Assembly (NCBI GenBank): GCA_022709525.1
Contig: JAKLIQ010000006.1
Location: 2,708 to 66,707 of the forward strand
Length of the DNA: 64,000 nucleotides
Origin: Candidatus Omnitrophota bacterium
GTDB taxonomy: Bacteria > Omnitrophota > Omnitrophia > Omnitrophales > Aquincolibacteriaceae
Direction: 5' to 3'
Position 1 is the stretch's first letter. Every line of letters begins with the position of its first letter. Below are positions 855 to 45,000 of this stretch, in pieces. Both the position numbers and the translations under genes were made by a program. The notes below the pieces were generated by a model that saw only the letters and a list, made by a program, of their open reading frames with translations, did not search any database and was not told the DNA's origin.

Positions 855-2966
855 TTAAGCGGCTTTTTCGGGAAGTTCCTGCGACAGCATCTCGGAAACA
901 AGATTCTCCAGAAGCGCCAGGAATTCCGGGTTTTTGGCGGACTGGTACAGGTTCGGGTTCAAGGCGATGATCCGGTAAAGAACGAGCGAGATGGGCCGTT
1001 CCGGCAGCACCACATACACACCGCTTTTATAACCTTCCTTCATGATCGCGAACGGGAATTTTTTCGCGAATCGCTGGAATTTCGGGGTTTGGTTCATCAG
1101 CGTATCCAGATCCTCGACCTCAAAACGCTCGATCCCCCGGGAAGCCAGAAAGATCTCGGGAACTTCCGCGAGAGGCACATCCTGGACCAGAACGAGAAAA
1201 TCGTTGCTCTTGACGATCCCTTCGATCAAGCCCGGGACTTTTTCATCTTCGAGAAGTCTCTTTAAAATACTGACCTGCGAGACCAGCATGGCTTTGCCGT
1301 GAACGCCTTGGATCCTTTCAAACCAGCCGCGGACGATACGAAGCTGTTCCGCGCCCCCCAGGAGCTTGAATGATGTCTCGTCGAAGGTTGTGGCGGGAAG
1401 CGCCGCGCGGCGCGTGGCGGTCTGTGAAAGGGGGGAATTTCCGGTGAACGCGGCCACGGCTTTGCGGACATCGTTGGTCGCGAGAAGGACTCCATAGCTT
1501 GCTTGGAACCTATCGTCGAACCACTCAAGCGCATTTCGGAGTTCCGAAAGCGTCTGATCTTTCACCCTGTCGAGACCCGGCCTTAACCCTGTAGAGACCG
1601 GGTCTCTGAGGGGTCCGCCCATTCTTTGGGCGTAAAGCTTTTCATTCATGGAGGCGCCACCAAGGTCCGGGGCGACGGTGATATAAGAGATCCCCGACTC
1701 TCGGAATTTCTGGGACAATCCGTCCGTATGAAATCCGCCCGTGACGACCGCGATATTGCCGGCCAAAGCAGGATCGTTCATGATCTTTTCAAAAAAGATA
1801 TCATCGCGTTTTTTGACCGTGTCGTAGAAATCAAGCGACAAGACAAGCTCCTCGGCCAGACCGATCCCCGCCAGCTCGGGCTCAAGCGCGATCTTTTCAT
1901 TCTCGTAGATCTTAAGGTCTTTCGGCATGGCTTTAAGGAGCAGCAACCGTTCCGCCAGGTAGAACCGTTCGGTCTTATCCCATAGGGCCTGTTCCTCGGT
2001 GGTTTTGATGAGCTTTTCAAGGACGCGGCCGGTCAAAATTTCGATCTGGGACATCAGATCTTCGAGAGAAATACGGTCCTGTAACTGGTAAATGCGGTTC
2101 AGTTTTTTGATCTCGGGGTAAAGGAGCATTTTCTCTTCCGGGATCTTGCCGCCGCGGACCAGCTCCTCGAGATTCCAGGAGGAGTTCTTGTATTTCTGCA
2201 TCAGGTCGCGGACTTCGGCCTCAAGCCGCTCTTTCGAGACTGATTTTTCTTCCGTCATGATCTCCTGAAGAAGCGCGATCTGGTCGAGGTCGGAGTAAAT
2301 GGCGCCAATACTTTCCGCAGTTTTTAAAAGCAAAGGAAAAAATTTGCCAAGGTCCGAAGTTTCGCGGAATTCTCCGAAGGCCTTCCCGAAATTCTGAAGT
2401 TCCGGCCCCCAGACCGATCCCTGGGAATTTTTTAACGAAGCGCCGTAATCAAGGAGTTTTTGGCGGATCTCCGGCTCTTTTTGAAGATGGGCGAGGAATA
2501 GCTGGCGGTTCTTTTCATACAAAGCGGCGTCTTCCATCCCGATGAGCATGATCGGTTCGGGCGACATGATCGCGGCATGAACGGGTCCGGAGATTCTATC
2601 GTCCTCCAACAGTGCATTAGCAAGAAGCATTTTCTCGCGCGAAGTTGGGATCGCATGGCTTTTGGGAAGGGAAGTTGAAGACCAGGCGCCTTCAAGCGCG
2701 GCTTTTTCAACGCCAAAGACGGTTCGCAGCCGCTCTAAAAGCGCCGCGATATTCTGCTGCGCGATCATATGCGCGTGAACATCCTGGATCTGGATGATGA
2801 TCCTCGGGCTCCCGCCGCCAAAACGCTCCTGAACCTTTCCGATCCCTTCAGGCGCCGCAAAATCGGCAAGGTCCGGAAGAGCTTCAGCTGTTTGCGCGCC
2901 GGCGACGGGGGAAAAGATCAAGGAAAGGACAAGCGAGGCAAAAAGAGGTTTGAAGATCATTCTCAT
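855..2966 (-). CDS. Stand-alone paralogue (703 aa) of the giant-protein N-terminal domain. Secreted or anchored TraB/GumN/Tiki-like domain protein plus a C-terminal extension.
   Basis: N-terminal signal MRMIFKPLFASLVLSLIFSPVAGAQT. Motifs IIIQIQDVHAH...LEGAW...VVTGGFHTDG...ISYITVAP are collinear with giant 1 (LIHIQEAHAN...LLEGAG...LITGGFHTDG...SSYIGITP) and giant 2 (LIVHLEDAHG...VEGGLG...LITGGFHSEG...VSYVRIAP). GGAGG lies 5 nt upstream of the ATG. Confidence 0.8.
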   Translation of the reverse strand: MRMIFKPLFASLVLSLIFSPVAGAQTAEALPDLADFAAPEGIGKVQERFGGGSPRIIIQIQDVHAHMIAQQNIAALLERLRTVFGVEKAALEGAWSSTSLPKSHAIPTSREKMLLANALLEDDRISGPVHAAIMSPEPIMLIGMEDAALYEKNRQLFLAHLQKEPEIRQKLLDYGASLKNSQGSVWGPELQNFGKAFGEFRETSDLGKFFPLLLKTAESIGAIYSDLDQIALLQEIMTEEKSVSKERLEAEVRDLMQKYKNSSWNLEELVRGGKIPEEKMLLYPEIKKLNRIYQLQDRISLEDLMSQIEILTGRVLEKLIKTTEEQALWDKTERFYLAERLLLLKAMPKDLKIYENEKIALEPELAGIGLAEELVLSLDFYDTVKKRDDIFFEKIMNDPALAGNIAVVTGGFHTDGLSQKFRESGISYITVAPDLGGASMNEKLYAQRMGGPLRDPVSTGLRPGLDRVKDQTLSELRNALEWFDDRFQASYGVLLATNDVRKAVAAFTGNSPLSQTATRRAALPATTFDETSFKLLGGAEQLRIVRGWFERIQGVHGKAMLVSQVSILKRLLEDEKVPGLIEGIVKSNDFLVLVQDVPLAEVPEIFLASRGIERFEVEDLDTLMNQTPKFQRFAKKFPFAIMKEGYKSGVYVVLPERPISLVLYRIIALNPNLYQSAKNPEFLALLENLVSEMLSQELPEKAA

Positions 2967-9200: not shown

Positions 9201-12200
9201 CTTCAGGGTTTTGAGGAAACGGATCTTCGCGACGCAAAGGTTTTGGTCAAGAAAAGATCTGACGGAATGGTTTACAATGTCACGCTTCCTTCCGAATTTT
9301 CGCAGCCCTTTGACGCTTTAGACACGCTTCTTAAAGAGATCGAGATATTAGAAGTTTCCCAGATCAGCCACATCGAAGTTGAAAGCCGCGCGTACATCCT
9401 GAAACACTTACTTGCCATAGCCCGGGGGTATGACCAGGAAGCCGCCCAAAAGGCCGGTGCGTTGCTCCGAAGACTCAATAAGCCCCATTCAGCCGCCGCC
9501 GCGATGGAAGAAGCCAAAAAACTTATTTCATCGTCTCGATCCGAAGCAAGAGCCGCCGGAACCGAAGAGAATCCCGCTTTTGAAAAGATCAGAAAGGCCG
9601 TCGTGGAGCTTGCTTTCGAATTGGCCCAAAAGCCGTGGTACAAGGTCCCCAAGGCCGGAGAAGATTTTGACGCGATGGTCAGGATCTTGTCGGAGCACAA
9701 CCAGAAAAGGATCCTCGGGATCGTCGCCTCAAGGATCGAACAATTCGCCGGCGAGATCAGAAGGTCCATGAAAGACGGTTCCACCTGGAAAATGCTCCGA
9801 AGCCGCTATGAGACGGCGCTTGACGCGTCGCGGAAGGTTTCCGGGGCCCCGTCCTCTCTTGAGGAACTTATCACGGAAATGCCTTTTGTTTTTGTGGACC
9901 GTATCGTCCAATTCGGGAAGGCACAAAGGCCTCTCGAAGAAAGATTGGCGCAGGCCGTAGAAGCGCTTGCTGAGATCCAGCGGGGTTCTTACGGATTGGA
10001 GAACGCAAAGACGGCGCATGAGCTCGAAACCAGACTCAGCCGCCGCGGCAGCGAGAGATTTATGGATGTCCTGGAAAGCGCGGAAGATTTCTCTCGCGCC
10101 GTCTTATCCCAGCGCTCCGAAGTCCGCGACAACACCAATACCATTGACGGCTATACGGTCGTCAGCCGCCAACTTGAAGCCGGCCTTGACCGCAGCATTC
10201 TTGAAGCTCTTAACAAAAAACTAAGCCGCCGGTTCCCTAATCTGGGGCATATGATCCGTCGTTATGTGGGGCTTGTCGCCGAAACAACGCTGACGGGCGG
10301 GTTGGGCGCGTTGATGCATGACCTTTTTCCGGCATGGGGGAAGAATTTTGGCTCCCAGGAAAAACGCGAAAAGGACCTTGTGGCGATCAATGTTGTTTAT
10401 GAAAGCATCAAAGGGCAGCGGTATGCGAAGTATTTGCCGGCGGAGATCCAGGAGGGAAGAAAAACGCTCGGGGATTACCTGCGCGGCGTTCTCAAATCCG
10501 ATAAAAGTCTCAGTCTTTCTTTTGAGCTCGAAATAGGGGACGATTTTAGAAGGAAGGCCGCCGACGAAGAGCGTTTTGCCGCCTCGTATGGCAGCGCCGA
10601 ATACCGTGTTTTCGCCCATAAAGCCAAACAGATCATCGGACAAAAGATCTATGTGGAGGTCTATCCGACCGAAACGCATTTTGGCCGTGTTCCCAACTAC
10701 TATGTGGACGCCTATTTTATTGACAACGAAGGCGAAAAAATCAGCATTTTTGACGAGGTCTATCCCGACGCGCCGCATGGGCACCCTAATTTGTGGCGCG
10801 ATGTCCATATGGCCGTTTACAGTTTGGCAAGCCAGCATCTCCTGGAAAAGCTTCGCAGGAAAGGCGTTGTTAAGAGCAAATTCCTTTTTGTGGATAACGA
10901 AGTTTTTGTCAGCACGCCCACGCCCCTTTTCCCCGACGCGATCCATCATCACGTCAACCACACGGTTTTCCGTCCCGGGCTTTACATGCCGGATGAAGCT
11001 TCCTATGAAATGCTCGGATTCCCGGAGGTGCAGCGCAAATACATCGTCAAGGACGGGAAGATCAACATCATTGATGCCGTCGGGATCTCTTCCCATCTGA
11101 TCACCGGGGTCGCCTTGTATGAACACACACCGGTCCTGGCCAAAGACATCATGGCGGCCCATGTCCATAAACTCGAAAGTTACAACAAAGAAGGCGTCCG
11201 CAACACCAACGGGGTTTATCTCGAACAGTGGCAATCGCCCCTTTTGACGGATCTGATCAGCCAGTACAAAGCAAAGATCGGCTTGGAGCCGGAGGATTCC
11301 AACCAGGCGTTCTATCGAGAGATCCAGAAAACCACCCACGCGAGGATCCTGGAAGAATTCGAAGAGAAAGCGGAATTCATCAAGGCGGTCCATGCGGCCG
11401 AACTCCTGCTTTGGCTTAAGGAAGACCAGAATTATTCTCTTTGGTTCGATGAGATGCTCGAAGCGTTTCAGGGCCAGCGCGGCGTTGCGGGCGGGGAATG
11501 GCATCTTGATATCGCTGACGCGGGGAAATTCGTCGAAGGGTTCCGGCAAGCCGTTCAAGATGCCGTCATAGACCCGGCGGGGTGGCAGCACTTCAAGGCG
11601 GGCCCCATGTTCTTCCTGAAAGAACTCCTCTTGCGGGAGCCCATCATTTCCAATGTCCGTCGACAGGTTTCTTATAAAGGGCCGGATAAATGGCTTGAGA
11701 TCTTAAGAAAACTGCAGCGCGATCCTCACGCCTTGGCTCAGTTCAAAGAAAATGCTCCCCGCGTTATTCTGGGCGGACGCGAATTTGGCGAAGAGGCGCA
11801 CGGCATGTTTTTAGAGATCCAAGGCCTCATCAGAGCCCTTGGGTTGCAAGACCGTTTCGCGACCGTCGACGACTACAATAACTACATTGCCCCGATCATT
11901 TTCCAGGGCGTTTCCGGCTCCGTGATGCTTTCCGACGAATTCCTGGAAGCTTCCGCGACCAGCATGATGAAGGCGATTGCGAACGGGGCGGCTCTGATCG
12001 GGGTTTGGGGCGGAGCGGATCCCGAGATCTTCACGATCGTTGATCATAAAACAAAACGCGAGCTGGATGTTTTTAAAGACCATGTCACCCATGACGAACT
12101 CGTTAAAAATCTAAGAACCGGCGCATGGAAGATCACGAACGGTTTTCTGATCGAATATAGCTCTCAAGAGAACAGCACGCAGCCGGGAGGGGGAAGGCGT

Positions 12201-15200
12201 CCGTCCGCCGATTCGCTTCTTCGCGCTCTTTTAGACCTGAACGAGCAATACCAGGATCCGGAAGCGAGGCGCCGGCTTCAATTCAATACGCTCGCATCTT
12301 CTTTAAAGGTCGATATGGCCGAAGGGCAAGCGCTGGCCCACAAAATGTTGTGGGAAGAGGCGATCAGGATCCTTCAGGAAGAGGACAAGGTTTTTGAAGG
12401 GCTGAAGATCTCCCAAGAGGACTCGGAGGCCCTTCTTTCCCGCTCGATCCGCGGCCAAGGTATTGTGGATTTTATCGAGGAATTCCGTTATCTGCGCATG
12501 AAGGGCCGTGAAAGTTACGACCGGGTCGCTTTTTACGCGACACAGGGGCTTCAAGGGAGCATTTTTGGTTTTCTCAATGAATTTTTTAAAGATTTTGACC
12601 ACACGCTCGAACCTGTCATCCGCAAGATCCATGAACTTTCCGTTCGCGCCGAAACCACGACCAACCTTCAGGAGAAAGTCATCGCCAATCTGGAAGCTCT
12701 GGAGATCGTGGAGCGGCTCACGGTGGAAGTTTCCGTCGCTCTTTTTGAGCATTATGTGCTTTCCGGGGATAAGGCGCTCGAACCGTATCTTGCCAAGCCG
12801 ATCATTCGCGAGAATCTGGCCCGCTATTTCGATGAACACGCAGTCGCGCTTGAATCGATCGCTAAAAAGATCCCGGGTTATACCGTTTCAATAGGCGATA
12901 AAAATTACCTCGTGGCACTAAATCTCGGCGAATTCAGTTACGTTGGCCCTTCGGGAGAAAAAGCGCGGGGCGATTTTTACGGCGAAGAAGGCATTAAGGC
13001 CCTTATTGGGGAAGAAGCGGCCAAAAACGATGCGAGCATTTTCCAGCTTGTGGATGCGATCACAGATCAGCGTTACGGCACTTATCCCGTCTGGAAGATG
13101 ATGGAAAGATTTCCGATCGGCGTGCCTTATCCCGGGGTTCAAGTTCTTCGCGTCGAAGATACAGGCCAGCAGTCGGAAGAAAAAGAAACAAGGCTTCGCA
13201 ACGACATTCTGCATTATCTCGAAGCCCTGGCCAACAATCGCCTGGTGAGCGATGGAAAACCGATCACTCAGTTGCTGCTCCAGAAGATCCAGACGGTTGT
13301 GGAGGATCCGGCCAAGCTTTCCAAAATGCTCAAGGTCGTGGCTAACCTCTCTCGCGAAGAGGCCATTGTCAAGTTTACCCGGGGCGGCGTTCCCGCAGTC
13401 ATGGCTTTTATCGCTATTTTGTCGCCGGAACTGCTTGAAGATGTCAAACATTGGAATCCCGATGTTTATAAAAAACTAAATGCGGTGATCCAAGATCCCG
13501 CGTTTGAAAAGAACTTCAAAGAAGGGAAGATCTGGTTCCATAAGGTGGACCGCGACAGCGCCCTTGTCATTTCAAGGAACCTGCCCGGACAGGATATCCC
13601 GCCCGTGATCGTCCCGATCCATTTCCCGGACAGGCCTTACCGCGCCGATGACGGAAAAGCCTGGTTCAGGTTGCTTGATGTGCGGAATTTAGGCGTTGAG
13701 AACTCTGACAAGATCGAATATCAAGTTTATGACGCCATCCTTCAAAAGGCTTATGAGCCGAAAACCGGCGCCAAGCTTCATAGCGAAAAATGGCATTTAG
13801 GCGTTCCCGTTGAGGGCGCGGGGTACCGGTTTCAAATCCTACAGGTCCAACTCGTCAGCGCCGCCCGTTCGGAAACCCGCGGAGTAAGCAATGAAGAAAC
13901 CGAGGAATGGACAAAACATATCAATGACTGGATTAAGCATACCCCTGAAAAAGTACTTATTTTGGGGCTGGGGTTTGTGGGTCTTACAAAGCTTGTACTC
14001 GGAGTGACGGATCATGGATGGGATGCTGTCGGCCTGGAAATCGTTCCCTCCAAAGCGAACATGATCTCGCAAGGCGGAATGCCTTTTTTTGCGGACATGA
14101 TGGAGCCGGAGTATGATAAGGAAGGGAAAATGAAAGATCCAGGCCTGCTTCAAACCGCCATCGAAAGCGGAAGATTTCATGTTACCTCAAGCTACGACGA
14201 AGCTCTGAAAGACCCCGAGAGAGACATTATTTTTCTCGCCGTTCAAACCCCTCAAAGCAACGATGGACGGGCGGATACATTTTATCTTGAATACGCCGTG
14301 CGAGAAGTCGCGCGAAGGACTTTCAGTTATCCCAGAATCATTGTAGGGAAAAGTACGGCACCTCCCAAAACTACCGTGGAAAAACTCAGAATCTCTGTAG
14401 AGGAAGCTCGCGCAGAGAGAATGCAGGAAGTTTTCATCAAACAGCTTCATGACGCATCAATGCAGACAGAAAGATCCGGGGACGAGGCAATCTTCAAATT
14501 AGTACAAGGCTTTCTTTCGGAACAGCTTATAAAACAAAAAATGGTTTTAGATTCCGAAAAATCTTACCTGGAAGCAGTAAGCCGGGAAGACTGGGCGGGC
14601 GACGTCAGACGAACAGAAAAAAAATTAAGAACAATTCATAGGGATAATCCTGAAAATATTAAGACGACCCTTGATTTACTTCGCGAGACAATCGGAGAGG
14701 GGAAATTTAATTCTCTTTTCAACAGCAAGGAAATTTTAGACCAAACAATCCCCATTGAATTTGCTTGGGAACCGGAATTTTTACGTGAAGGAAAAGAGGT
14801 CGTCGACGATCGTGGAGAAGCCGGGCGCATAGTGATCGGAGCCGAAAACCTTAAGGCGGCGCAAAAGGTCAAAGCCCTCTACGAACATTATAACCCCAAT
14901 CTGAATCCCCCTCGTCAGCAAGTTCCTATTGTTATCACAGATCTTGCAAGCGCTCAAACCGTCAAGTATGCCGCTAATACTTACCGCGCGATAAAAATAT
15001 CTTTCATTAATTATATCGGCTGGCTTTGTCAGGTGATGGGTTACGATGTGAATAAGATAGCAGATATTATAGGAATAGAAGGCAATGTTCGAAGGGCGTT
15101 TTTAAATGCAAGTCTTGGTTTTGGCGGATCGTGTTTTCCTAAAGATTTGGCGGCTTTTGTTAAATTATGTAGGGAGCTTGGCCTTTTACCCAATTTGGTA

Positions 15201-18200
15201 TTAGACGCTCTTGCGGTCAATGAAGTTCAGATAAGGAGGTTCGTGAATTTAATTGTCAAACAATTAGACGGCGTCAAAGATAAAACCATTGTTGTGCTTG
15301 GCGGTGCTTTTAAACCCGAAACGAGCGATACGCGAGATTCCAGAGCCGTTCGCGTCATGCAGGATCTGTTGCAAAAAGGAGCCAAGATCAGGGTTGTAGA
15401 TCCTAAAGCTATACCGGAGCTTCAAAGAATGTTTAAGGCGTATCCCCCCGGAGTCATTGAATACTTCGAGAATTTAGATGATTTTGAAAACGTCTTTAAA
15501 GAAGCAGACGGCATTGTACTCGCTACAGAGTGGGAAATATTTAGAGATAAAAGAATAGATCCTAAAAATGGAAAAATGGATTTTGAAAAAATAGCGGCAC
15601 TTTTTACTCATAGACAGTCACTTCCTCATATTTTTGACGGCCGAAACTTATTTGAAAGAAAAGCAGTTAAAGAATTTGGCTTTTCGTATATTGATATTGG
15701 ACGCGCCGAATTACTTAAATCAGACAAAGAACATGTCGCATTTGCAAAACAAGTCAAAGAAGTTTTTCTGGCAGGGAGAGTTTCTCATATCAATGATGTC
15801 GCAGAACTTGCAGAGAAAACCGGAGCCAACGCCTTGGATATCCGAAAAGGATTTGGGTTAGATCCCGTCGTCGGAGAGAGCTATTTAGATCCCGGCATTG
15901 GTTGGGGCGGTCATGACCTTGTGAATTCGCTCCGAGCTCTTGAGAAGCAATCTTGGGATAATATTAAAGATTTGTTGGATGAATATCGCGAAGCCAGGAA
16001 AGATTTTATGAAGCAGTTTGGTTTTAGCGAAAATGAGTTTCCTGATGACGAAAACAGAGTTCCTTTCGTAACAGCTAGCCGCGAAATCAACAAAAAGCAG
16101 ATCGGACTTTATTTAAATAAGGTCAAAACTATTTTAGGCCCTGATCTTAACGGAAAGGACATAACGCTCATCGGTTTGGCCTATAAGATCGGCACTTATT
16201 CTCTCGAAGAATCGCCTTCTATTCATCTCATCGAGGCTCTTTTGCAAGAAGGGGCGATCGTTCATATTGCGGATGAAAATCTTGCTGCTACCGCCAATAC
16301 GAAGGATTATTTTAGCAGATTTCAACACGGAAAATTCGTAGAAAATATTCGCCTTTATAACAATCTTTCCGACGCAATTGTCAATGGGAAGGATTTGCAA
16401 GTTTTAGTGAATCTTTCAGAACGCTACTCTGAAGAATCAGAATGGGCAAAACTCGGATTAAAGAAAGTTTTAGACGCCAGACATTTTTTTAATGATCCGG
16501 TTTCTCTTAAAAAGACGGGTATCAGTTATTTTGCTTTAGGGATACCCGAGGTGAGTTTAGCTGAGGAAGAAGTGTTGAGGCAAAGGGAAATGGAAAGTCG
16601 CGCTGTTCTGAGCCAAATGCAAAAAGCGATTGTCTTTTATAAAGACAAAGTTATGATCGAAGAAAGGGAAGATGAAACATATAAAGTTACCGCATTTGTA
16701 AAAATAGAGGATTCCTGGCTACAAAGAGCCGATTTTTATATTTTTTATGGACCTTATCCCCATGAGCGTCAAACTTTTGATTGGTATGCCCAAGAAGTTT
16801 TGGGCGGGAACATTCGAAAGATAGAACAAACACCCGATTTTTATCAGATCAAACTTATTATCTCACCTAAGAACAATTTTCCAGCTGTTGAGGGGAGGTA
16901 CGGCCTTACCCTTTTTGCCGTTCCTAAAACCATGGCAGAAACGGATCCGGGTTTTCGAAAAGTTCGGTTATGGGCCGCTAAGCCTTTTGACGACACTCCC
17001 TTTATCGTACGTCGTACCGAGCGTTCGGAGCTGCGCAGTCCCGTGGAGGATTTCAGGGCGGAGATCGAAGCGGGCAAAGTCACATTCATCATGTTCAAAG
17101 AAGACGCAGTGAGGGGCCGGAACGAAGAGGGATTGATGGTTCCTCAAATGCTCGAGCGGCTTAGAGACCACGGGTTTGAATTGGTGTATCTTGGCGCTCA
17201 GACCGAATTTACTCAGGAACAGGCCCGGGAGTTTTACGCGGTGCATCAGGGCAAGTGGTTTTATGAACCGTTGGTCCAATACATTACTTCAGGGCCCGCT
17301 ATCCCCGCGTTGGTACGGTATCATGGAGAAGGCCCGGCGGTTCAGGCGATCCGCAGCATTCTGCCGTCGTTGCGCCAGGAGTTCGGGATCGAGAAGGGGG
17401 ATCCGGAGCTCAAAAAAGTTGAACGCAACAAGATCCACGCTTCCGATTCACCCGAGAACGTGTTCTATGAAGGCGCGATCGCTTTCCGCTCCGAGCTCCG
17501 GACGCTGGATGTCGAGGCGCTCGTTGCAACGATCGCCGAACCGGTCTCCGCGATCGATCTTTTCAAGAAAATAGGGCAAAATTCCGCCTTAAGGCAGATC
17601 CGCGCTCTGAAAGAACAAATCATCAAGGCATCTTCCGAGTTCAATCAATCCAAACGCCAGGCCGAAGAAGTCCAGGAGATCGGCGATCTGGGGCTCAAGA
17701 TCGCAAAGCTTCTTTCCCAGGAAAATTATTCTCCCGAAAAGACCCAAGGGATCCTTCAAAAGGCGGTTTCAGAACTTTCTGAGGCGTTGGGGCTTATTCT
17801 TAGATTGCTGACTTACGCGGCAACGGCTAACACCAAAAGTATCCAGCCGTCGGTTTCCGTTGAAGCTCAAAAAATGGTCAAGAAGATCGAAGCGGCGATG
17901 GAGCGGCCTGCGCGCGAAAAGAAAGCTACGGAAACGGCGTCTCCCCGTTCCGAACTGCGGAACGTCGCGGCGCTGATCGCGACAGGAGTTGAGGTCAGGA
18001 CGCCCGAGGAATTCTTCCGGCGCAATCTCGAACAGGGCGGCGGCCATGAACAGGGCGTCCGGAGCGTTACGGAAAAGGTCATGGATGGGATCTATTCGCT
18101 TCTGGCTCATAGCTTTGATGCCGCAAAAGTCATTTCCTCCGCTTTCTTTCCGGAAGCTTATGCTCAAGAGATGTTAACCATGGCTTCCAAGCCCGAAATG

Positions 18201-19866: not shown

Positions 19867-20466
19867 ATGGCTAACGACGAATTACGCGCTAAAACACAGG
19901 AAATCGCCAAGAAACACAAAGCTTCCTGGATCGAGCTTGGGCAGTATCTTTTCTCGATCTATAAGAACAAGCTTTATAAGGAATGGGGTTACCAGCAGTT
20001 TGAGACCTATTGCCAAAAAGAGCTGAATATCAGGAACACCACCGCTTCCAAGCTTATCCGTTCCTATTCTTTCCTCGAAAAGGAAGAGCCGCGGATCGTA
20101 AAGCCGGACTTCACGGAAGGAGAAACGCCGAAGAAGATCCCGGATTATGAGGCGGTCAATCTCTTAAGACTTGCCAAAAACAACAAGACTATTCCCGCCA
20201 ACGAATTTGCCGAACTCCGGAACGATGTTCTGAACGAGGGGAAGGAACCCAAAGAAGTGCGGGCCGCGGTCAAAAAGATCCTCGAGACCCATGCGCCGAA
20301 AGAAACGCCGGAGATGAAGGACCAGAAACGGGGTTCGATCTTACGCCGGCTGATCGGATTTCTTAATTCGGCCAAAAGCCAACTTGAGGAAGAGGATCTT
20401 GTGCCGGATTATTTACTCAAACAGATCGATACGCTGACGCAGAAACTCGAAGACCAGCTCAACTAA
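19867..20466 (+). CDS. Hypothetical protein (about 200 aa), flanked on both sides by GGGACTCG elements.
   Basis: Start MANDELRAK with GAGGG upstream. The segment ASWIELGQYLFSIYKNKLYKEWGYQQFETYCQKEL might be a DNA-binding/HTH-like region. The rest is a Lys/Glu-rich helix. No confident family assignment. Confidence 0.5.
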   Translation: MANDELRAKTQEIAKKHKASWIELGQYLFSIYKNKLYKEWGYQQFETYCQKELNIRNTTASKLIRSYSFLEKEEPRIVKPDFTEGETPKKIPDYEAVNLLRLAKNNKTIPANEFAELRNDVLNEGKEPKEVRAAVKKILETHAPKETPEMKDQKRGSILRRLIGFLNSAKSQLEEEDLVPDYLLKQIDTLTQKLEDQLN

Positions 20467-20866
20467 GGACGGGACTCGATACTCGTTCCTCGGGACTCGC
20501 TTTGGTTCCTCGTTTTCTCGAGTCCCTAGTCCCCAGCGACGAGTCCCGCTTTGATCGCTTTTTTGCGACCAAAGCTGCTTTTTTAGAGCGCGGCCACTCT
20601 TTCACTTCGCATTCCCGGATAAGCGCGCGCGACCGGTCGCCGCATGTTTCGGAATAAAGCATTTCTACAGGCCTGCGGGTACGGGTATAACGGGACGCTT
20701 TACCGTCTTGATGCATCTTGAAGCGCCGCTCGATATCGTTGGTGATCCCCGTATAAAACGATCCATCGCAGCATTTCAGAATGTAAAGCGACCATGCCTC
20801 CGCGGTTTTCCCAGCGGTTTTTTCTTTTTTAAGACCCGCGAGCATTCGTTTATAGGTGGGATGCAT
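20459..20866 (-). CDS. GIY-YIG nuclease-family protein (UPF0213/YhbQ-like) with a 30-aa repeat-encoded C-terminal extension.
   Basis: WSLYILKCCDGSFYTGITNDIERRFKMHQDGKASRYTRTRRPVEMLYSETCGDRSRALIRECEVKEW. The tail ...RDSSLGTRDSRKRGTKASPEERVSSPVLS comes from the repeat. Confidence 0.65.
   Translation of the reverse strand: MHPTYKRMLAGLKKEKTAGKTAEAWSLYILKCCDGSFYTGITNDIERRFKMHQDGKASRYTRTRRPVEMLYSETCGDRSRALIRECEVKEWPRSKKAALVAKKRSKRDSSLGTRDSRKRGTKASPEERVSSPVLS
20471..20549. repeat. GGGACTCG palindromic element. It overlaps the 3' end of the GIY-YIG gene and encodes its C-terminal tail.
   Basis: gggactcgatactcgttcctcgggactcgctttggttcctcgttttctcgagtccctagtccccagcgacgagtcccgc. Confidence 0.85.
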
Positions 20867-26006: not shown

Positions 26007-26009
26007 ATT

Positions 26010-26090
26010 TTCCGCCAAACAGCGCGGCGGACCCGTCCGACAAAGCGCTGTTGGGACGGACCCGCCAACGCTTTGTGGCGGGCAAATTTC
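26010..26090. repeat. Second small repeat family (REP/terminator-like hairpin ...cccgccaacgctttgtggcgggcaaattt) immediately after the GGT stop. A related copy is at 27990-28040.
   Basis: Shared cgccaaacagcg...ggacccgccaRcgYtttgtggcgggcaaattt. Stem ccgcca/tggcgg. Confidence 0.55.
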
Positions 26091-26101
26091 AGGTTTCAAA
26101 A

Positions 26102-27232: not shown

Positions 27233-27288
27233 GAGACAAAAGGATTTTAGTTAAAATACCGCTCTAAAACATTTTTAAGGAGGCCACG

Positions 27289-27975: not shown

Positions 27976-27989
27976 CAGATCTCAGATCT

Positions 27990-36060: not shown

Positions 36061-39000
36061 ATGTTAAGAAAAGATGGGAAATCAAAAGTGAAGGGGCTAA
36101 GCGCGGTTTCTAAAATGCCAGACCATAACAAGACGACATTCTCTCTTCCGGTAAGGGCTATCGCCATGTTCGTTCTTTTTGCCTTTACGAGCACGACCAT
36201 CGCCTGGTCTGCGCCTTCAGTCGGGACTGAGGTGAAAGAGCTGAGTCGCGAGATAAAGATCAACCAGCTTGCAGAACGAATAACAGTTCCTTCCGAAATC
36301 GGCATCATCAAAGAAATACACACCGCTTCTCCCGCCTCAGCGCTCAGTCCTCAGTTCTCAGGGCTTATTGTTCACCTCGAAGACGCGCACGGGAGCGTGG
36401 AAGCCCAACTCCACCAGGAAGCAATCCTTCGCCACCTTCGAAAAGAGTACGGCCTGGATACGATCTTCGTTGAAGGCGGGCTCGGCGATCTCCGGCCGGA
36501 GCTTTTGAGTTTTCTAGAAGATGAGAAACGGAATAGCGAACTCATCAACAAACTGACCGAAAAAGGATTGGTCGGAGGCGTTGAGCGATTTTTGGCGACG
36601 AAGTCGCCAGACCAGAGACTACAGACCGCAGACCACAGCCTAAAGACAAAAGATTTTAAAGCAATTGCTCCGGTCTCAAGTCTTAAGTCTTCAGTCCGCG
36701 CTTTCGGGGTAGAAAGCGCAGAGCTTTACCGCCGCGAACTTGAACTTTTCCGGGAAGTCTATGCGCACAAAGCCGAAAGCGATCAATTCCTGAACGGGAT
36801 CCGCCGCCAACTTTTAGCGCAAAGCGCTTCCGGTTTTAACAAAGAACTCAAAGCATTCTTCAAGGAATGGCTCTTTCAAGAAGAGGTCCAGAAAGACATT
36901 CTTTCCCATCTTTCCTTCCTTCAGAAATATGCCGTCGAAACACTGAATCTTGATCTGACGGATGCCCGCGAACAGTACGATTGGCCGCAGCTTGTCAGAT
37001 TTTTCAAGTTGAAAAACCTGGAGGGACTCGTTCCTAGGGACTCGGAACTTGCCAGGGATGAAATGCAAAAATTGGCACAATGGCTGAATGATCAAAAGCT
37101 GGATGATCTCAATAAAGAATTGGAATTATTTTTTAACGAGCCCCGAGGAGCGAGCTTCGAGTCCCGCGGCGAAACTTTCAGGACGAGAATGGAAAAATTC
37201 TATGCGAAAGTTTCGCCACGGGGTTTCCGGTTTGAGGACTATCCCGCTCTTACCAAACGGATCGGTTCGATCATCCTAAGCCAGGAGATCCAGACCGGCG
37301 AGCTCCTTCAGGAAATGGAGCGGCTCAACGCGAAGATCCTCGAAGCGCTCGCTAAAACCCAGGAAGAGAAGCGAGGCATTGCGCAATATCAGGAGTATTT
37401 ACTGCTTAAGAAATTGTTTTCGCTTGAATTGACGAGAGAGGAATTTAAACAAATGGGACTCGCTCCTCGCGACTCGCTCCTCGAAAAAACAAGGGGCCAA
37501 GCCGAGTCCCGAATCCCTAGTTCCGAGCCCCCCGCGAGGGAGGTTTATTCCCGCGCGCTTGAGTTTTATGAAATCGCCCAACAGCGCGAAGAAGCTATCT
37601 TCAAGAATATGCTCGCCAAGATGAAAAGCATCAAACAACCGAACGCCGTCCTGATCACCGGCGGTTTCCACTCCGAGGGGCTTTCGGAATTCCTCAAAGC
37701 AAAAGGCGTTTCTTATGTCCGTATCGCGCCCCGCATTTCCGGGAAGATGGACGACGCAAATTATCTCCGGATCATGACTTTGGGACAGTGCGCACCGGCC
37801 GCTCGGTCTTCTGCCCGCTTCGCAACACTCACCAATGATCCTAAAAGTCTCGATGCTGCCACAGTTGAGTTTATTCGCGCGGAGCTTCGTACTTCTATAC
37901 GAGAAATCGCGGACGATGTGATCCCTTCTAATGAGTGGATTATCTCCAAAGACCTCTTGGGACGGCAGTCCGAAGCTATGGTTCCTCGGGACTCGGGACT
38001 CGGGACTGGTTTTAAAAACGAGTCCCTAGGCACAAGCGACAAGTCCCGCGCCGAAGGACGCTCCGAGGCCCGGGAAGAAGAAAAAGATCCGTCCGCTTTG
38101 GAAAAGGAATTTGAAAGATTGTTTCCTTCAAATAAAGAATTAATGCTGGCTCTGTTCGGGGAAATCGTTCTTCAAAATAAGAATATTGAAAAGTTTTTTT
38201 ATCAGCTCATGGCCATTTATGGTCTTGCATCCTGGGATGGCGAACATTATCAATCGACCACCAAAAGGCCCTTGTCTCCGGAGCAGGCTCTTTATTTTGT
38301 TTCTTTGTTGCGCTTGGAGGGAGGAGGATTTTTAGGGGATGAATATGAATTTATTTATAAAACGAAAAAAGGAAAAAGGACCGTCGAAAAAACCGTCGCC
38401 TACACCGATCTCGATCCGGAATACCTGGAATGGGCCGTAAAATACAAGATTCCCATAGAATATTTTCCCCTCACCTATAGCCTCTTTATCGATAAGAAAG
38501 AAGGCCTTCCTCAAACGGGCACCACAAAAATAGCGATCCGAGCCGGGAATCAATTGGGCGAGGAATTGTTTCGCGAGTTTATCGAAAAGCGCGGGCCGCG
38601 CGTTCGCGAACCTCTTGTTAACGCAAAAGGCGTCGATCCCAAAAATCTTCGATGGTTGAAAATTCATCCCGACAGCCATCTAAGCAAGATCGCCGATTCC
38701 CATGGGATCGATCCCAAGGATTTGAAGTTGGGGTTCGAGAAAGAAGGGGATCAACATTCCGTTTACCTTTTTACGGCAAACGAAACTTTTAACGCCGAAG
38801 CGAGTCGGCGGTTTGATGCTTCTCATGTCGCTTCAATTCCGATCGGTTTTGTTTCGATCCGCTATGACGGAAATACCCCTTTTATTTATGGTTATCAGCC
38901 GAGATTCTTTATTCCTTCTCATGGAAAAGAAGACGCGAACGATGTCGTCGGAAGAACTATCAAGGGCGGTATGCTCTTTCTCGAAGCGTTTTTGGAAAAA

Positions 39001-42000
39001 GAAATTTCAAAAATTGTTTCCGCGAAAAAACCAGTTAAAAAACTTCATTTTCCTACCCCTAGCTGGCATTTGGTAAACAGTAAAGTTGCCGGGACAACAG
39101 CTTTTCGATATTACTACGAATTTCCAAAAGAACAGGGATTTCAGCTTGTTCTCGCCACGCCAGAATCCAAGGCCTTTAATATGGGCAAATCTTGGCAACC
39201 TCATTGGCTTCTGGAAAAACATATCGAAAAAAACCGTTCCGAGATGCGCGGAAGCTCGATCTCGGTGAAATGGAGCGAAAAAATCGCCAAACTCAAACAA
39301 ACCCCGGATTATCGGCTGCTTGCCTACCTTTTAAAAAATACGGGCCTTTCGGAGATCGAAAAAAACAGATATATCACTCTTTGGCTCATGATGGCGATCT
39401 CGGCGCCGCTGACCGGCAGCCTGAAATTTGTTTTTGCCGCCGGGGCCGCCTCGCTTGCGGCCGTTTCGCCCTGGTTCGTTATGGCCCCGCCTCTTGTGGT
39501 GTTGCTCTTAAGCCCCCTCTTCCGGCTCGTGTTCTTTGTGGGGCCTTTCTGGGCCGCTTCCGGTTTTAAAATGAAACTCGATTGGCTGATCCCGGCGAAT
39601 TTTGTGCCCGGTTTGGGCGCTTTTATCGCCGTTCCCGCGCAGATCCTCAAATCCTTAAAAGGCGAATACCGGCAATATCAGAACATGTCGGTCAGAAAGC
39701 TCCGGCAGCTTGTCTATCAACTCGACGGCATTCTCTCCGAACACAGAATGAACCTCCCGCAGGAAGACCTGGACGCCATAAGATCCAGACTGCCCATGAT
39801 GGCTTTTAAGGTGCTGGAATTCCAGGCGGCTCATCCCGGGTTTTCTTTAAAAAAGAACGGAAAAGAAAACCCCGAAGCCATCCTCCATCTCGAAAGCGTC
39901 GATCTTTTGCCCGTCCGTCTCGAGAGTTTGATCCGGGAAAAGACGCCCACGATCTTTTTGGGTTCGGGCCAGGAAAGTTTTAATACTCTGCGGCAAAGGA
40001 TCCCGCCAGACCGGTTGCCCGGCCTGGATTTTTATCAATTTGACCTCAGCCAGGAGCCCGGGATCGAGAAAGATTCGATCCAGCCGCTTGCCGCGAGATC
40101 TGAGGCCAGACACAAAGGTTTATTTTCTAACGTAACACCGTTAGATAAGATCGTTGAGAAACACAAACAATGGAACCTCCATAAGGTAGTCGATGTGTTG
40201 GATCGTAAGGCGAGGGAAATAAAGACTTTTTTTTGGTGGGAGCTTTTAGAGCAATGGCGAACCGATGGCGGCTCTTTTTATTTTACCTCTGAAGAGAAAA
40301 ATTTTTCCGAATCATTACGCCGGGCCAGCGATGATCAATTCAAGGAGCAGGTTGAACGTCTTCTCAGGACCTCTTTTGCAAAAAGAGACCTTATTCTTTC
40401 AAGCAAAAAAGACTATCCGACTTTCGATGAACTCATAAACAGCTTTGAAACCGGATTTTTGTCATTTTATTCCAACCTTTTCGGTGTTTTAGCGGATGAA
40501 GCCGTAAGCGGAAGACTTCCTGCGGCGGAAAAGAATTGGAAAGTTTTGATGCCCGAGCTCATTCGTCGTTGGAATGAGAACGATTCAGCCCGCTCGGAAA
40601 TGAGAAATGATATCGAAAAAAATATTGAAAAGATCCTTGAACAGGCGGATGTCCGGATCCGTTCCGGCGATGAGGTAGAGTCAGAGCCGGGAGTTTACGC
40701 GGCAACGCCCCCAGTTTATTTGACCGCTATTGAAAAAGTGCTCCAAATAGATCCTCGCAAAGAATTAATCTTGATCGAAGCAGGACACGCACAGGGACTT
40801 CTCGCCCTAAGACTTGCCATGAAACATCCTAATCTTCGAATCATCGGCATCGAAGGACGCCCCAGTCTTTACGAGGACAGCAAAAAGATCCTTGAGGCCG
40901 CTATAGAGCTTCGCTTTTTAAGACCGGAACAGGTCCATTTTTATGAAGGTGATTTGAATGATGAAGAATTCAGCAAAGACTATGAAGCCGCGGATATCGT
41001 CTATTACTACAACTATGGCGCGGACGATGAGACAAAATTCGCTCTTACCCTGGCGGATCATTTGAAATATGGTGCGCGCGTTGTTGTTTTTGACGGTTTT
41101 TTAGATGGCGGGGAGGCCGATCATTTTAGCCAGGCCTTGCGGGAGACCGAAGTTTTTGAAGGAACGATTGTTCAGGGGGTCCGTAGCATACCTGTTTTCA
41201 AAAAAACGCTGGACACTCAAGATGTCTCTTTAGAAGGGAATCGCTCCGAGGTCCGGAACGAGGCGGCGACCTCAAGGGCTCTTCCCGGCGCCTCGAAACG
41301 CTTTGCGTACGCCGAAGAAGTGGCCCGCGTGGTCGGTCTTTTAGGAGAGCTCCGGCAGCTGGATAATACCCGCGTTCTAGCTCAAACCGAAAACGGGGTC
41401 GGCGAAGAAAACTGGAGCCGGTGGATCCAACACCATATGGCGGGAAAATTGCACGTTTTCTTCGGCTATTGGAATTCTTTCAATGAATCGGGGGACATCG
41501 AGGATCTTGAGACCGCGGAAAAAGGGTTGCAAGAGGCGGAAAATATTTTTGAGAGCCGAAAATCGTTCAAAGAGGCCCTTCAAAACGATTTTGATCATTT
41601 TCACCTGAATCCTCCTTTGGAAAAGGTCAGGAGCGGAAAACCGCTGTTTCCCCTCGAACTTGTCCATTATTTCCTTCACAAAGTTTTTGTCGAAAACCCC
41701 AATGCGCAAAAAAACCGCGAGGTTTATGCCCGCGTCATCCAGGATCTTGAAGAGGCCTTTTATGAGATGCGGGAGGCTTTTGAGAGGGTCAAGACCGAAA
41801 AATATTTTAAAACGGCGGAAGAACTGGAAAAAAATCCGCCGGCCAATGTTTCTTCTCAAAAAGCTTCTTCAGAGGTTCTGCGTCATTTTCGCGTCTATGA
41901 CGGTATGGATGGGAAACTTTACGCGGATCCGCGCGTCTGGTACCGCGAGAATTTTTCGGGCTTCGACCACTTCGCTGCCATTGGGCCCGGGGAAATTGTT

Positions 42001-45000
42001 TTTCTCACCCTCGATGAAGGAGCGACCGGCGCCGTGGCTTCGCTGGGTCATCACGAGTGTCTCTCGTTGGCGATCCGCGCGCGGGCCGGGAACAAGAACG
42101 TGATCGGCCTCGCCCATGTCTTTTATGACATCATGGCCGGAAACTCCCAGGATTCTTACGTCAAGTACCTCAAGATCCTCGATCATCTCCACGCTCAAAA
42201 AGAGTGGTCGGATATCCAGATCATACTGACCGAAAATAACGTTTTTCACGGTTTTCCGAAAGGTATGAATCTGGATGTTCTCAAGCGGGAAGCCGCCGAC
42301 CGCGGCATCCAGGTTTCTTCCGCCGAGGTCTGGAAATTCGGAACGGATGCCTGGGTGGACATCATTGCCACACCCCAAGAGGTTTTTCTTCGGAAAAGGG
42401 AAGGAACGGCTCCTTTCCGTTATGAACCAAAAGATTGGGGCGCGCCAATTCGGACGGACCCGGGCGATCCTCGCACGGTTTCGTTCATGCCTTCCACGCT
42501 CGTCAGTGAGGATGGAGAGGAATTTGAGGTGTCCTACGAGGACGGATCTGTCGACGGTCAAAGAACGATCAAGCTTTTATACGATGGTCAACCGGTCGCG
42601 ACCGTTGATTTCAGGATCGATCCCAAACAGAATGCGGCCATTCTGGATTACAACAATGATGGTCCCAAGCGCTATGTTGGGATCGAAGTAAATCAGTTTT
42701 TTAGCGAACGTTATTCGGGCATTGGTACTGCGCTCATGGGGCTGGCATTCCGCGTAGCGCGCGATGAAGGTATTCCGGAATTTTATGTTCTACATTCCAA
42801 GGCGGATGGTTTTTATGAAAAGCTTGGCATGATTAAGATTCGCGACGGCGTTTTTCGCTTTCCCTTGGAAGATTCTGAAAGGGAGAAACAACGCCTTTCC
42901 TTTCCTCCGCTTCGCATTCGCTCCAACCCCCGCTCCGAATTAAGAAAGAAAAAAGAGGAAGATCCGAATCAATTAAAACTGTTTGAAGCGTCCGAAACAA
43001 AAGAGCTCGATCCCGAAAATGCCCTCATGAGGCAACTGGGCTATGCCTGGGAGCAGATGAAGCAGGCCATTCAAAGCCCCGAAGAACTTGAAAAAGCTCT
43101 CTATGAAAAGATCCCAGCCGTTAAGAAGGCGGTTGAATTCCTCGGGTTCCAGGTCGTCGAAGAGAACAGGAAGCTTTTTGTCACAGATCCCGTTTTCAAA
43201 CGGAAGATCCAATTCCGCGCTTATCAGGTGCTTCTGGCCGCTCATGCCGCGCGGGGCGATGCGATGGTGATCTTGCCGACCGGTCTGGGGAAAACGATCG
43301 TCGCCGTGCTTGTCGTGGGTTATCTGCTGAAACAAGCCCCTCAGAAAAAGATCCTGATCACGGCGAATTCCAACCTGCTCGTTGAACAGCATGCCGACAC
43401 CTTTGATCAATATTTTGAGTCCGACATTATTGCCAAAATAGGCGAGAGCGATAACGAAGAAGGCCGACGAAGCTTGTGGCGAAGAGCGCGCATCGTGATC
43501 GCCACCAACGACCTTGTAGTTGCCGACCCCGGCGTCTTTTTGATCGACGATATAGGTTATTTGATCGTTGATGAAGCGCACAGGGTTGGTGCGGCTCCCG
43601 ACGACCGTTACGCCGGTACCCGGCTCGTTCAGGCTTATCGCGAAAAAAATCCCGATGGCAAATTGCTCGGCTTGACCGCTTCTCCGCGCCCCAAAAAGGA
43701 ACTGAAGGGGTGGCAGCAAAATCTCCGGCTCAGCGATACGGATTTTTTTGCGGCTTCGGAAGAAGACTCGTGGATCTATCCTTATGTGATCAAGCGCAAC
43801 GCCGAGATTGCTCGAGCCGAACGGGACGCCAAATTCCCCCTTCTTTTCATGATCCTCAGATTCCTGGAAGATGTTTTTAAGGTAGTCAGGACAACAGATA
43901 TTCGGGCCGATTTCGAAGATGCCCGTCAGAAAGTCCTGAATGCATGGCTCGAAGAGAATGACGAAAAGATCCAGAAGGTCTTTGACGGATTTTTGCAGGA
44001 TACCGCTCGTCAAGCGGCTGCAAGCAGCCAGCGCGTGTTAATGCAGGAACAGTACGGGCCGGTCTTGGAGCTTATCCGTAAAGTCCGCACAGAACTCGTT
44101 CCTCAGATGTTCGATTTAAAAGCCTCGAAAGCGGTCCGTATCGCGGAATGGGCCGCTCTTTTTGAAAAACCCGTTTTTTCCGACCCAAAATTTTTAGAAC
44201 TATCTGTCGCCGTTCGAACCTCTTTTGAGACGGAGCTTTTCAGAAAAGCAGCTCAAGACCTCGAAACGCTCATCGACAGGCAAAAATACAGGATCTATGA
44301 GCTTTGGCAGCAAAACCTTCAAAAATCCCTTTTGAATGTCAAAGGCGATATGTCCCGGCTGTCTCATGAAAAGATCGAAAGGCTCTGGGAAAAGACCTCC
44401 GAGGAATTCCGCGACAATCCCGACGATTTTGGAGTGGCTTATAAAGCGGCTGTGGAAGCAAAAAACTGGAAGGAAAAAGACAGGCTGGATGTCCTCGTAA
44501 CGCTCAACCAACTTTGGCATCTAAGGGGCGATTGGATCAAATACGGCCCCGAAAAATTCACAGGAACGATCCAGACAAAAGATTTGGAAGCGAAAGCCAG
44601 CTGGAAAAAAAGGACCCGGCCTGCGCTTGAAAGAACGAGCGTCCTTGACGCGGCAAGCTGGTTTCAAAAGAGCCGCGAAATCTTCCCCAAAGAAAAAATA
44701 CTTTTAGACCTGCTTCGACCCGTCCAGGGAAAACCTCACGACAGGACCGCGATCTTTGTTGATGATAAAAAAATGGCGCGGCGTCTCGTAGAGCTGATCA
44801 AAAAAGAATTTCCGGACCTTCGGGTCGCCATGCTCGTAGGACGCGGCATGGGGGGATCCGACGAAGGAATGACCCCCCGCGAACAAGAACGGGTCAGGGA
44901 TGATTTTAATAAAGGGAAATTGGATATTCTGGTGGGAACCGATGTCATGGCGGAAGGCCTGAACCTCCAGGGCCTTCGCCGCGTTATTGAATATACGCCC

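Follow-up and report, generated by a model that had tools for sequence, protein, structure and literature searches.

Giant genes that string unrelated enzymes together in one polypeptide are an oddity of the Omnitrophota that has been recognised only recently. Two of them lie in a 64-kb stretch of a Candidatus Omnitrophota bacterium contig (JAKLIQ010000006.1, positions 2,708 to 66,707; assembly GCA_022709525.1), which was examined together with about 20 related loci and is called the window below. Both open reading frames (ORFs), giant ORF 1 (G1) and giant ORF 2 (G2), are divided by a short peptide motif, RSExR, which cuts them into 31 modules. The subject of this study is the mosaic of base composition that runs through these modules, above all an AT-rich module of G1 that encodes a UDP-glucose dehydrogenase (UGDH). 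The compositional break at this module coincides with the motif, and one module replacement between near-identical genomes demonstrates that modules of these giants are exchanged as cassettes.

The window has a guanine-plus-cytosine (GC) content of 0.509. Besides the giants it holds ordinary housekeeping genes, including those for an MqnA-like protein, an M24 peptidase, a split transketolase and gamma-glutamyltranspeptidase, thyA, folA, sodA, a radical-SAM gene and others. The giants sit in an Omnitrophota genome: SodA and MqnA of the window are 100% identical to 'Candidatus Omnitrophota bacterium' proteins, and its syntenic relatives are Omnitrophica metagenome-assembled genomes. Many distinct Pfam families tile the two giants and no single family dominates. 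G1 contains a response regulator (Response_reg), a Phosphorylase fragment, a full UGDH (N-terminal, central and C-terminal domains) with a second partial copy, and a nucleoside diphosphate kinase (NDK), whereas GNAT, DEAD/ResIII, Helicase_C and HPr were identified in G2. In an independent assembly G1 is called as a gene of 5158 amino acids (aa). Coordinates of all features are collected in Table 1.

The RSExR motif occurs 29 times in the giants (11 in G1 and 18 in G2) against 0.28 expected, always in the giants' own frames, and ordinary genes of the window have no such site. RSE is followed by x-R in 28 of the 29 cases, the exception being RSESV at aa 209 of G1. Tandem or relic delimiters are found as well, namely RAEGR-RSEAR at aa 667/671 and RSETR-ESEIR at aa 6177 of G2, and RSEARSEMR in the related locus L001; RAExR amounts to eight sites in total. 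Homologous giants of other lineages carry other motifs. P0260 has RAExR four times, while P0262, P0265 and P0266 lack RSExR and have [GAS]ARL[AS] five to eight times each against at most 0.08 expected. Delimiters that differ by lineage in this way would be in keeping with a processing enzyme that co-evolves with its cognate motif.

The codons at the 29 sites are biased too. The first arginine is encoded by CGY in 25 of them (43% in the bulk, P = 2e-6) and the serine by TCS in 24 (42% in the bulk, P = 8e-6), giving a nucleotide consensus of CGY-TCS-GAR-NNN-MGN. This bias hints at common ancestry of the joints, or at a DNA- or RNA-level constraint beyond the peptide motif.

Compositional breaks at the module borders

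A sequence-only reading of this DNA had described the UGDH segment of G1, at about 14350-16950, as AT-richer than its flanks. Its GC content is indeed 0.413, compared with 0.523 in the phosphorylase-like module and 0.553-0.558 from the NDK module to the end of the gene. GC at third codon positions (GC3) in a sliding window runs at 0.23-0.43 within the block and at 0.55-0.70 outside it, so that most of the drop falls on synonymous sites. The window's 22 ordinary genes form a homogeneous set (chi2/df 1.3, P = 0.15), with a GC3 of 0.614, a standard deviation (SD) of 0.029 and a minimum of 0.547, and the UGDH segment, at 0.390, lies 7.7 SD below them. Modules delimited by RSExR are over-dispersed in GC3 in both giants (chi2/df 15.5, P ~ 1e-30 in G1; 4.1, P = 1e-8 in G2). 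The sliding-window shift is well beyond the gene-to-gene variance, and the view that it is no more than such variance is rejected.

The maximum-likelihood low-GC block of G1 spans codons 3654-4621 (nt 14112-17015), which refines the earlier limits. Estimates of the 5' edge range from 5 to 82 codons past RSETR. The support interval of its 5' edge covers codons 3571-3709 (nt 13863-14277) and takes in the RSETR at codon 3572 (nt 13866); that of the 3' edge covers codons 4603-4630 (nt 16959-17040), around the RSELR at codon 4624 (nt 17022). The notion that the motifs lie near the compositional transitions was borne out, six of eight block edges in the two giants being at most 5 codons from a motif. 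An unbiased test of this coincidence is given by partitions that keep the same module lengths in permuted order. The RSExR partition accounts for more of the GC3 heterogeneity than the permuted ones do, with P = 0.0044 in G1 and P = 0.0092 in G2.

Two other AT dips of G1, at about 4203-4502 and 6303-6752, have GC at second codon positions (GC2) of 0.21-0.26 with near-normal GC3. They were rejected as cassettes, being driven by GC2, that is, by amino-acid composition.

In G2, top-level binary segmentation returned no change-point, the blocks being short, and it was replaced by a penalised optimal partition with local likelihood profiles, whose search windows were set with the modules already known. 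Edges were placed at codons 676, 1064, 1350, 1732 and 3983, and motifs stand at 671, 1063, 1350, 1732 and 3984. The low-GC stretch formerly noted at 38100-39300 proved to be module m2 (GC 0.435), and another low-GC pair, m4 and m5, had been missing from that list. The stretch at 47100-48500 is real as well, although its strong part is limited to 47083-47997 in module m11 (GC 0.416, GC3 0.38). Modules m2, m4 and m5 are identical in L093, a relative of about 98% nucleotide identity (measured over 20 kb), indicating that their arrival is older than the split between the window and L093. Even at lenient thresholds, Pfam gives nothing significant for the low-GC modules of G2, and for m5 only a weak methyltransferase hint.

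The label 'TraB-like' that had been attached to the m11 stretch was not upheld. No Pfam match, PF01963 included, was obtained at E <= 5, and comparison with the profile of the giants' N-terminal module (hhalign) gave a probability of 1%. A single-sequence AF2 model of the block has a predicted local distance difference test score (pLDDT) of 61 and a predicted template-modelling score (pTM) of 0.54; its top PDB match is the erythromycin esterase EreC, whose fold is related to TraB/Tiki, at a non-significant E = 0.03 and template-modelling (TM) score of 0.22. As modelled, the block thus offers a weak hint at most and the label is unsupported.

Outside the discrete low-GC modules, the bulk of G2 has a GC3 of 0.559 against 0.614 in the housekeeping genes, while that of G1 (0.602) is unshifted. 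In the related locus L097, giant modules have a GC3 of 0.48-0.57 against 0.58-0.68 in its housekeeping genes.

Table 1. Features of the two giant ORFs and of the free-standing relative of their N-terminal module (window positions)
Feature	Position	Strand	Description	Basis
Free-standing 703-aa paralogue of the N-terminal frame module	855..2966	-	divergent from G1; motifs QIQDVHAH ... LEGA ... GGFH	
Giant ORF 1 (G1), 5181 aa	3153..18698	+	12 modules, 11 RSExR; conserved N- and C-terminal 'frame' modules	ORF list, Pfam, motif list
G1 module m8, phosphorylase-like	10113..13865	+	native composition, GC3 0.612; precedes UGDH module	
RSETR delimiter, 5' side of low-GC G1 module	13866..13880	+	within 2-unit support interval of 5' change-point	
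G1 module m9, low-GC UGDH cassette	13866..17021	+	aa 3572-4623; GC 0.425; GC at codon positions 1/2/3 0.541/0.344/0.390	
Complete UDP-glucose/GDP-mannose dehydrogenase	13950..15656	+	N 13950-14420, central 14949-15224, C 15294-15656	
Second, degenerate half-UGDH	15753..16562	+	central + UDP-binding domains, no N domain; GIGWGGHDL	Pfam, alignment
C-terminal extension, ~150 aa	16584..17021	+	no Pfam match; in L002 and P0258; absent from L001	
RSELR delimiter, 3' side of low-GC G1 module	17022..17036	+	GC3 change-point (codon 4622) 2 codons upstream	
G1 module m10, nucleoside diphosphate kinase (NDK)	17022..17486	+	native composition, GC3 0.658	
Giant ORF 2 (G2), 6930 aa	36049..56841	+	19 modules, 18 RSExR delimiters	ORF list, Pfam, motif list
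G2 module m2, low GC	38059..39234	+	GC3 0.434, neighbours 0.557 and 0.652; no Pfam match	
G2 modules m4 + m5, low GC	40096..41241	+	GC3 0.430, 0.456; edges exactly on motifs	
G2 module m7, GNAT-adjacent DEAD/Helicase_C module	42931..45237	+	segment 43017-45237 replaced in L093	
Duplicated delimiter, 3' joint of swapped m7	45181..45246	+	RSETR-ISLRTERNEVPV-RAEMR; single RSEMR in L093	
Low-GC sub-block of G2 m11	47083..47997	+	aa 3679-3983; starts behind predicted transmembrane helix, ends 1 codon before RSEIR	

Module turnover among related loci

The slots of the two giants were compared across loci with two anchors, sodA beside G2 and, for G1, the conserved gene that immediately follows it. 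In syntenic relatives, the housekeeping genes of which are 72-96% identical to those of the window, giants with differing module sets and orders were found. For instance, the giant of L001 ends with NDK, UGDH, a short module and the C-terminal module, NDK thus preceding UGDH, opposite to the order in the window. That of L002 runs from a phosphorylase-like module through UGDH and two unrelated modules to the C-terminal one, and in L003 and L097 the C-terminal module alone is shared with G1. L004 and L098 have no giant in the G1 slot, which is taken by an epimerase gene in L098. Likewise, L096 (sodA 89% identical) is collinear on both sides but without G2, its sodA standing directly beside the radical-SAM gene, and on the contig of P0031 the G2 slot is filled by a giant of 7818 aa with different cargo. 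Whole giants are therefore presence/absence polymorphisms in otherwise collinear housekeeping neighbourhoods. The modules that are shared are 30-46% identical irrespective of species distance; between L001 and L002, the transketolase gene product TktN is 96% identical whereas the UGDH modules are 45% identical.

The comparison of G2 with L093 reveals such turnover at close range. Not one mismatch occurs in the 3183 nt of modules m2-m5 (100% identity), m6 is 99.8% identical and m8-m9 are about 98.7% identical, whereas the helicase module m7 between them shows an identity of only 29.5% along its entire length and appears as a gap in blastn. At the 5' joint, the window and L093 agree through RSELR and 22 further residues, after which identity collapses. 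The delimiter at the 3' joint is duplicated in the window and single in L093. Synonymous codons for the conserved peptide NPYTEFRSE differ there between the two genomes, and from the ATG CGG of the relic RAEMR onwards the DNA is shared again. This joint looks like a recombination scar, the incoming cassette having brought its own delimiter. One module has thus been replaced between near-identical genomes, and modules are exchanged as cassettes.

Smaller differences from L093 were also observed. In the N-terminal frame of G2, positions 36217-36384 and 36598-36723 (aa 57-112 and 184-225) are 30-40% identical to L093 between flanks that are 100% identical. Mosaicism is therefore present at sub-module scale also, in the form of hypervariable loops or short conversion tracts. 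Between the giants (25059-36048), nucleotide identity to L093 is patchy, with 1.000 for the ABC ATPase gene, 0.916 for folA and 0.961 for thyA, as is typical of a frequently recombining population.

Delimiter-bounded modules that turn over by recombination even at about 98% genome identity supply an evolutionary unit for the giants of Omnitrophota, and compositional mosaicism becomes usable as a read-out of this turnover.

Origin of the low-GC UGDH module

The first UGDH copy of the module is a predicted enzyme. Its three domains (PF03721, PF00984 and PF03720) match Pfam at E = 1e-21, 4e-41 and 7e-30, all above gathering scores, and both the GxGxxG loop (GLGFVG) and the catalytic-cysteine motif GGxCFxKD (GFGGSCFPKD) are intact. 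The architecture around it is idiosyncratic. In giant-embedded modules, a full UGDH is followed by a degenerate central and C-terminal half and often by an extension of about 150 aa; the half-UGDH is common to all of them, and the Pfam lists of P0001 and L087 show this arrangement as well. An insert of about 105 aa (approximately 14406-14747, G1 aa ~3752-3865), mostly charged or helical, separates the NAD-binding domain from the catalytic core. This insert falls inside the low-GC block and is specific to the window, being present in no aligned relative.

Homologues were sought among 1.84 billion representatives by word-indexed and exhaustive HMMER searches. The top 12 or so HMMER matches are all modules in giants of 1.3-5.7 kaa (thousand amino acids; P0001 and P0258-P0266), with 307-628 bits, and free-standing UGDHs of about 440 aa score far lower (at most 223 bits). 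A phylogeny against free-standing homologues, which had been proposed for each module, was built for UGDH. In the resulting neighbour-joining (NJ) tree the giant-embedded modules, including that of the window, form one clade apart from the free-standing enzymes. Moreover, the slot directly after the phosphorylase-like module holds a UGDH in the window, L002, P0258 and P0264. The modules of L001 and L002 have native composition, with GC3 of 0.575 and 0.574. Since slot and architecture are common to relatives and GC is native there, the module type and its slot are old, and only the allele of the window is deviant.

The shift itself was dissected by codon position over 761 aligned columns. GC at the first, second and third positions (GC1/2/3) is 0.551/0.352/0.399 in the window, 0.614/0.386/0.576 in L001 and 0.586/0.427/0.580 in L002. 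Residues of the FYMINK group are enriched in the window module and those of the GARP group depleted. All two-fold codon families of the block are shifted to A/T endings, and TTA, AGA and ATA are up two- to four-fold. The dinucleotide signature, normalised for base composition, deviates by a delta* of 0.0747, a value reached by none of 221 control windows of the same size. Modules m8, NDK and the C-terminal one are slightly GC-richer in the window than their counterparts in relatives. Taken together, the pattern is that of a functional sequence which appears to have been under stronger AT pressure for long, and neither of protein composition nor of decay.

It is proposed that the giants are built as 'frame plus cargo', in which conserved N- and C-terminal modules would enclose a variable string of unrelated enzyme and domain modules. 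Recombination with diverged giants of other Omnitrophota would replace, add, remove and reorder whole modules, with joints that coincide with the delimiter or follow it by a few tens of codons. The UGDH allele probably evolved for long under stronger AT pressure in a lower-GC lineage without having ameliorated yet, and the same explanation could apply to the low-GC modules of G2. As the nearest relatives are all giant-embedded and the slot is shared, it is suggested that a diverged, lower-GC allele, drawn from the pool of the same gene family, took the place of a resident module. The UGDH block is probably such an allele of the resident slot, brought in from an Omnitrophota lineage of lower GC and still unameliorated. 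We infer both the arrival by module replacement and the lower GC of the donor. Lower-GC genomes with homologous, RSExR-bounded UGDH modules do exist (GC3 0.47 in L091 and 0.46 in L092), and L095, the contig of P0259, which is the nearest to the window UGDH in the NJ tree, has a GC content of 0.475 and a GC3 of 0.42-0.50. None of the UGDH modules in these three loci is a close donor. A metagenome scan with the second half-UGDH as probe, the back-translated patterns of which were too degenerate, returned only two distant (25%) loci, and MqnA variants, used as a route to close strains, include none between 100% and 87% identity. The sequence-only reading had supposed modules spliced into giant genes from foreign sources; a mosaic of RSExR units with cassette exchange stands, while UGDH as a novelty from an unrelated source does not.

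Several points weigh against import of the allele. No donor or close relative of it was found among the 1.84 billion representatives, the best identity being 46%. The NJ tree was built without bootstrap, and the sister relation to P0259 in it is weak. Pairwise UGDH identities among the window, L001 and L002 are 46, 38 and 45%, so that the window copy is no outlier in divergence. Not every edge coincides with a delimiter: the 5' maximum-likelihood edge in G1 lies 82 codons past RSETR, with the motif inside the support interval, and that of the m11 block in G2 (codon 3679) lies 115 codons past a motif. Furthermore, giant cargo is generally somewhat AT-richer, so that some in-situ effect on composition may exist, and the cleavage of the giants into modules, considered below, is a matter of prediction.

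Some of these points suit in-situ drift, the strongest of the alternatives and nonetheless an unlikely one. Under drift, resident low-GC modules would have turned AT-rich locally, for example because selection on codon usage was relaxed, or because GC-biased gene conversion was missing in a segment whose divergence prevented recombination with the alleles of the population. The donor that was not found, a module type and slot common to relatives, cargo that in the window as in L097 is richer in AT than the housekeeping genes, and a UGDH no more diverged than the copies of relatives would all be expected from it. Nevertheless, the shift is limited to single modules of one ORF and transcript, with edges 0-5 codons from delimiters, and in the neighbouring modules GC is native or higher. 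Amino-acid usage, GC1 and GC2 are shifted too while the catalytic motifs are intact, the dinucleotide signature is distinct, and replacement of a module has been seen directly in the same gene family. An imported allele accounts better for these findings.

The earlier proposal taken literally, namely a new in-frame insertion of a free-standing UGDH from an AT-rich, unrelated organism into a giant that had no such module, is far less probable. The compositional anomaly and its sharp edges would agree with an insertion of this kind, but the top matches are giant modules scoring well above any free-standing UGDH, the NJ clade of embedded modules includes the window's copy, and both the architecture and the slot after the phosphorylase-like module recur in L002, P0258 and P0264. 

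Amino-acid composition or function, in the sense of a protein rich in lysine, asparagine and isoleucine, explains the two GC2-driven dips of G1 and has next to no probability as the cause of the UGDH block, in which the drop is mainly in GC3 and two-fold families are moved to A/T. It is refuted by the 238 columns in which the window, L001 and L002 have the same residue, where GC3 is 0.42 in the window against 0.59-0.60. An assembly chimera, with reads of a lower-GC organism mis-joined into the contig, has nothing but the compositional jump in its favour and is the least credible of all: the ORF is open across both block joints, the same 21 kb were assembled independently with 0 mismatches in ENA ERZ27257456 and 3 in JGI 3300010429 (a 551-kb contig), and in Logan SRR15237811, the assembly of a third project, the low-GC modules m2, m4 and m5 of G2 are identical, by which the chimera is refuted.

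Known systems, processing and minor features

Multi-enzyme giants of Omnitrophota have been described in two preprints (Nielsen & Lui 2026, bioRxiv 10.64898/2026.06.07.730766; West-Roberts et al. 2023, bioRxiv 10.1101/2023.11.21.568195). Both point out the uniqueness of the sequences, a suspected post-translational cleavage and a possible mobility of whole loci, and the cleavage points are stated to be unknown in the latter. G1 and G2 resemble these giants in belonging to the same phylum, in the tiling of one polypeptide with unrelated Pfam domains (a response regulator, sugar-metabolism enzymes, GNAT and others) and in highly unique sequences set against a conserved architecture. They differ from class 1 of Nielsen & Lui in length, the cut-off of that catalogue being at least 10,000 aa and G1 and G2 having only 5181 and 6930 aa. 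No delimiter motif, intragenic GC mosaicism or module replacement in near-identical genomes is reported in the two preprints.

In terms of mechanism, the closest analogue is the displacement of C-terminal tips in Rhs/CdiA proteins, in which conserved and variable parts have distinct GC signatures (Jackson et al. 2009, PMC2935791). Features in common are a gene body that is large and conserved, exchangeable cassettes and recombination within a clade-limited pool. In Rhs/CdiA, a short conserved peptide motif marks the boundary of the exchangeable part. RSExR at the module borders, with GC3 breaks 0-5 codons away, is comparable to it by analogy only, the motif itself being different. Whereas in Rhs/CdiA only the C-terminal toxin tip is swapped, together with a paired immunity gene, and displaced tips accumulate downstream, in the giants exchange affects internal modules over the full length of the gene, the cargo is metabolic or regulatory and the C-terminal module is conserved. 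There are no immunity genes or orphan tips beside the giants; MqnA and a housekeeping gene of the radical-SAM type lie downstream of them.

A similar combination of independent domains in one ORF, with short recurring boundary motifs and a variable domain content, is known from viral polyproteins and from the 'polyvalent proteins' of phages and conjugative elements, reportedly described by Iyer and colleagues in 2017. The giants are chromosomal, in contrast, and lie in conserved housekeeping neighbourhoods with metabolic cargo instead of replication or anti-defence functions, and their cleavage is putative. 

The pbp genes are an example of mosaic genes, in which a resident segment was replaced by a diverged homologue. 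With such genes and with genomic islands the UGDH block shares a sharp-bordered compositional anomaly, phylogenetic incongruence and replacement by a diverged homologue via recombination. Unlike them, it is a sub-genic, in-frame unit with a peptide delimiter, and hallmarks such as tRNA genes, integrases and direct repeats are missing. No tRNA was found in the window and no mobility Pfam (integrase, transposase) among the neighbour genes, direct or inverted repeats at the block edges are only short ones of chance level, and neither plasmid nor phage collections contained a blastn match to the block. Of the traits expected of an island, deviating composition is present and whole giants are absent from some relatives (G2 from L096, G1 from L098), whereas the UGDH module recurs in the same slot of L002, P0258 and P0264 and is present in L001 as well. 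Mosaic gene evolution via cassette replacement is already known; what is new is the setting and the kind of boundary.

An NDK or a UGDH normally works as a small oligomer. Given the strict placement of RSExR at module borders, its lineage-specific equivalents and a cargo that usually forms small oligomers, RSExR is predicted to be a site of post-translational proteolytic processing, with the modules as separate proteins. RSExR also provides the recurrent short motif at domain boundaries that is expected of a polyprotein. No protease Pfam was detected in G1 or G2. RSExR and its equivalents in other lineages offer a testable handle on processing. If modules are indeed released, cargo such as UGDH, NDK, HPr, helicase and response regulator would be inherited and exchanged like the genes of an operon within a single frame, and the annotation, the metabolic repertoire and counts of gene-transfer rates of such genomes would change.

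A more far-reaching proposal, which is doubtful and offered tentatively, is that the giants are bacterial 'cassette arrays' at the protein level, in which a conserved frame holds exchangeable enzyme cassettes and a lineage-specific delimiter serves as both proteolytic site and preferred recombination joint. A giant gene would then encode a cellular polyprotein and amount to an operon that lacks intergenic regions. The fixed CGY-TCS-GAR coding sequence would make the delimiter the preferred joint, and the system would be an in-frame analogue of the integron.

As to the frame, homology links the N-terminal modules (H-x-x-[ED]-A-H ... GGFH) of G1 and G2 with each other and with the giants of other genomes, and the same holds for the C-terminal modules. 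No significant Pfam match was obtained for the frame modules at lenient thresholds, and a PDB sequence search with the N-terminal profile found nothing; a structure model of this module from the three window sequences reached a pLDDT of 48 and was not taken to a fold search. The free-standing paralogue (ORF 855-2966) matches the first modules of G1 and G2 in blastp at E = 1e-8 to 1e-12 and has no Pfam match. Its orthologue in L098 (57% identity) lies in a genome without the giant.

Both giants of the window end in a similar short tail, FAFARSA in G1 (18660-18695) and ATAKSA in G2 (56803-56838), and among P0001 and P0258-P0266 the C-termini read ARSA, AVSA, EISA, GKSA or QAA. A tail of this kind may serve the frame as a conserved signal at its C-terminal end.

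Two minor genes lie outside the giants, both known from gene calls on identical contigs. A gene of 135 aa with a GIY-YIG nuclease domain is located at about 20458-20865 on the minus strand, between a hypothetical gene and that of the M24 peptidase, and is also present in L001 and L097. A 23S_rRNA_IVP gene (PF05635) stands at about 33.7-34.07 kb, between folA and a metallo-beta-lactamase gene.

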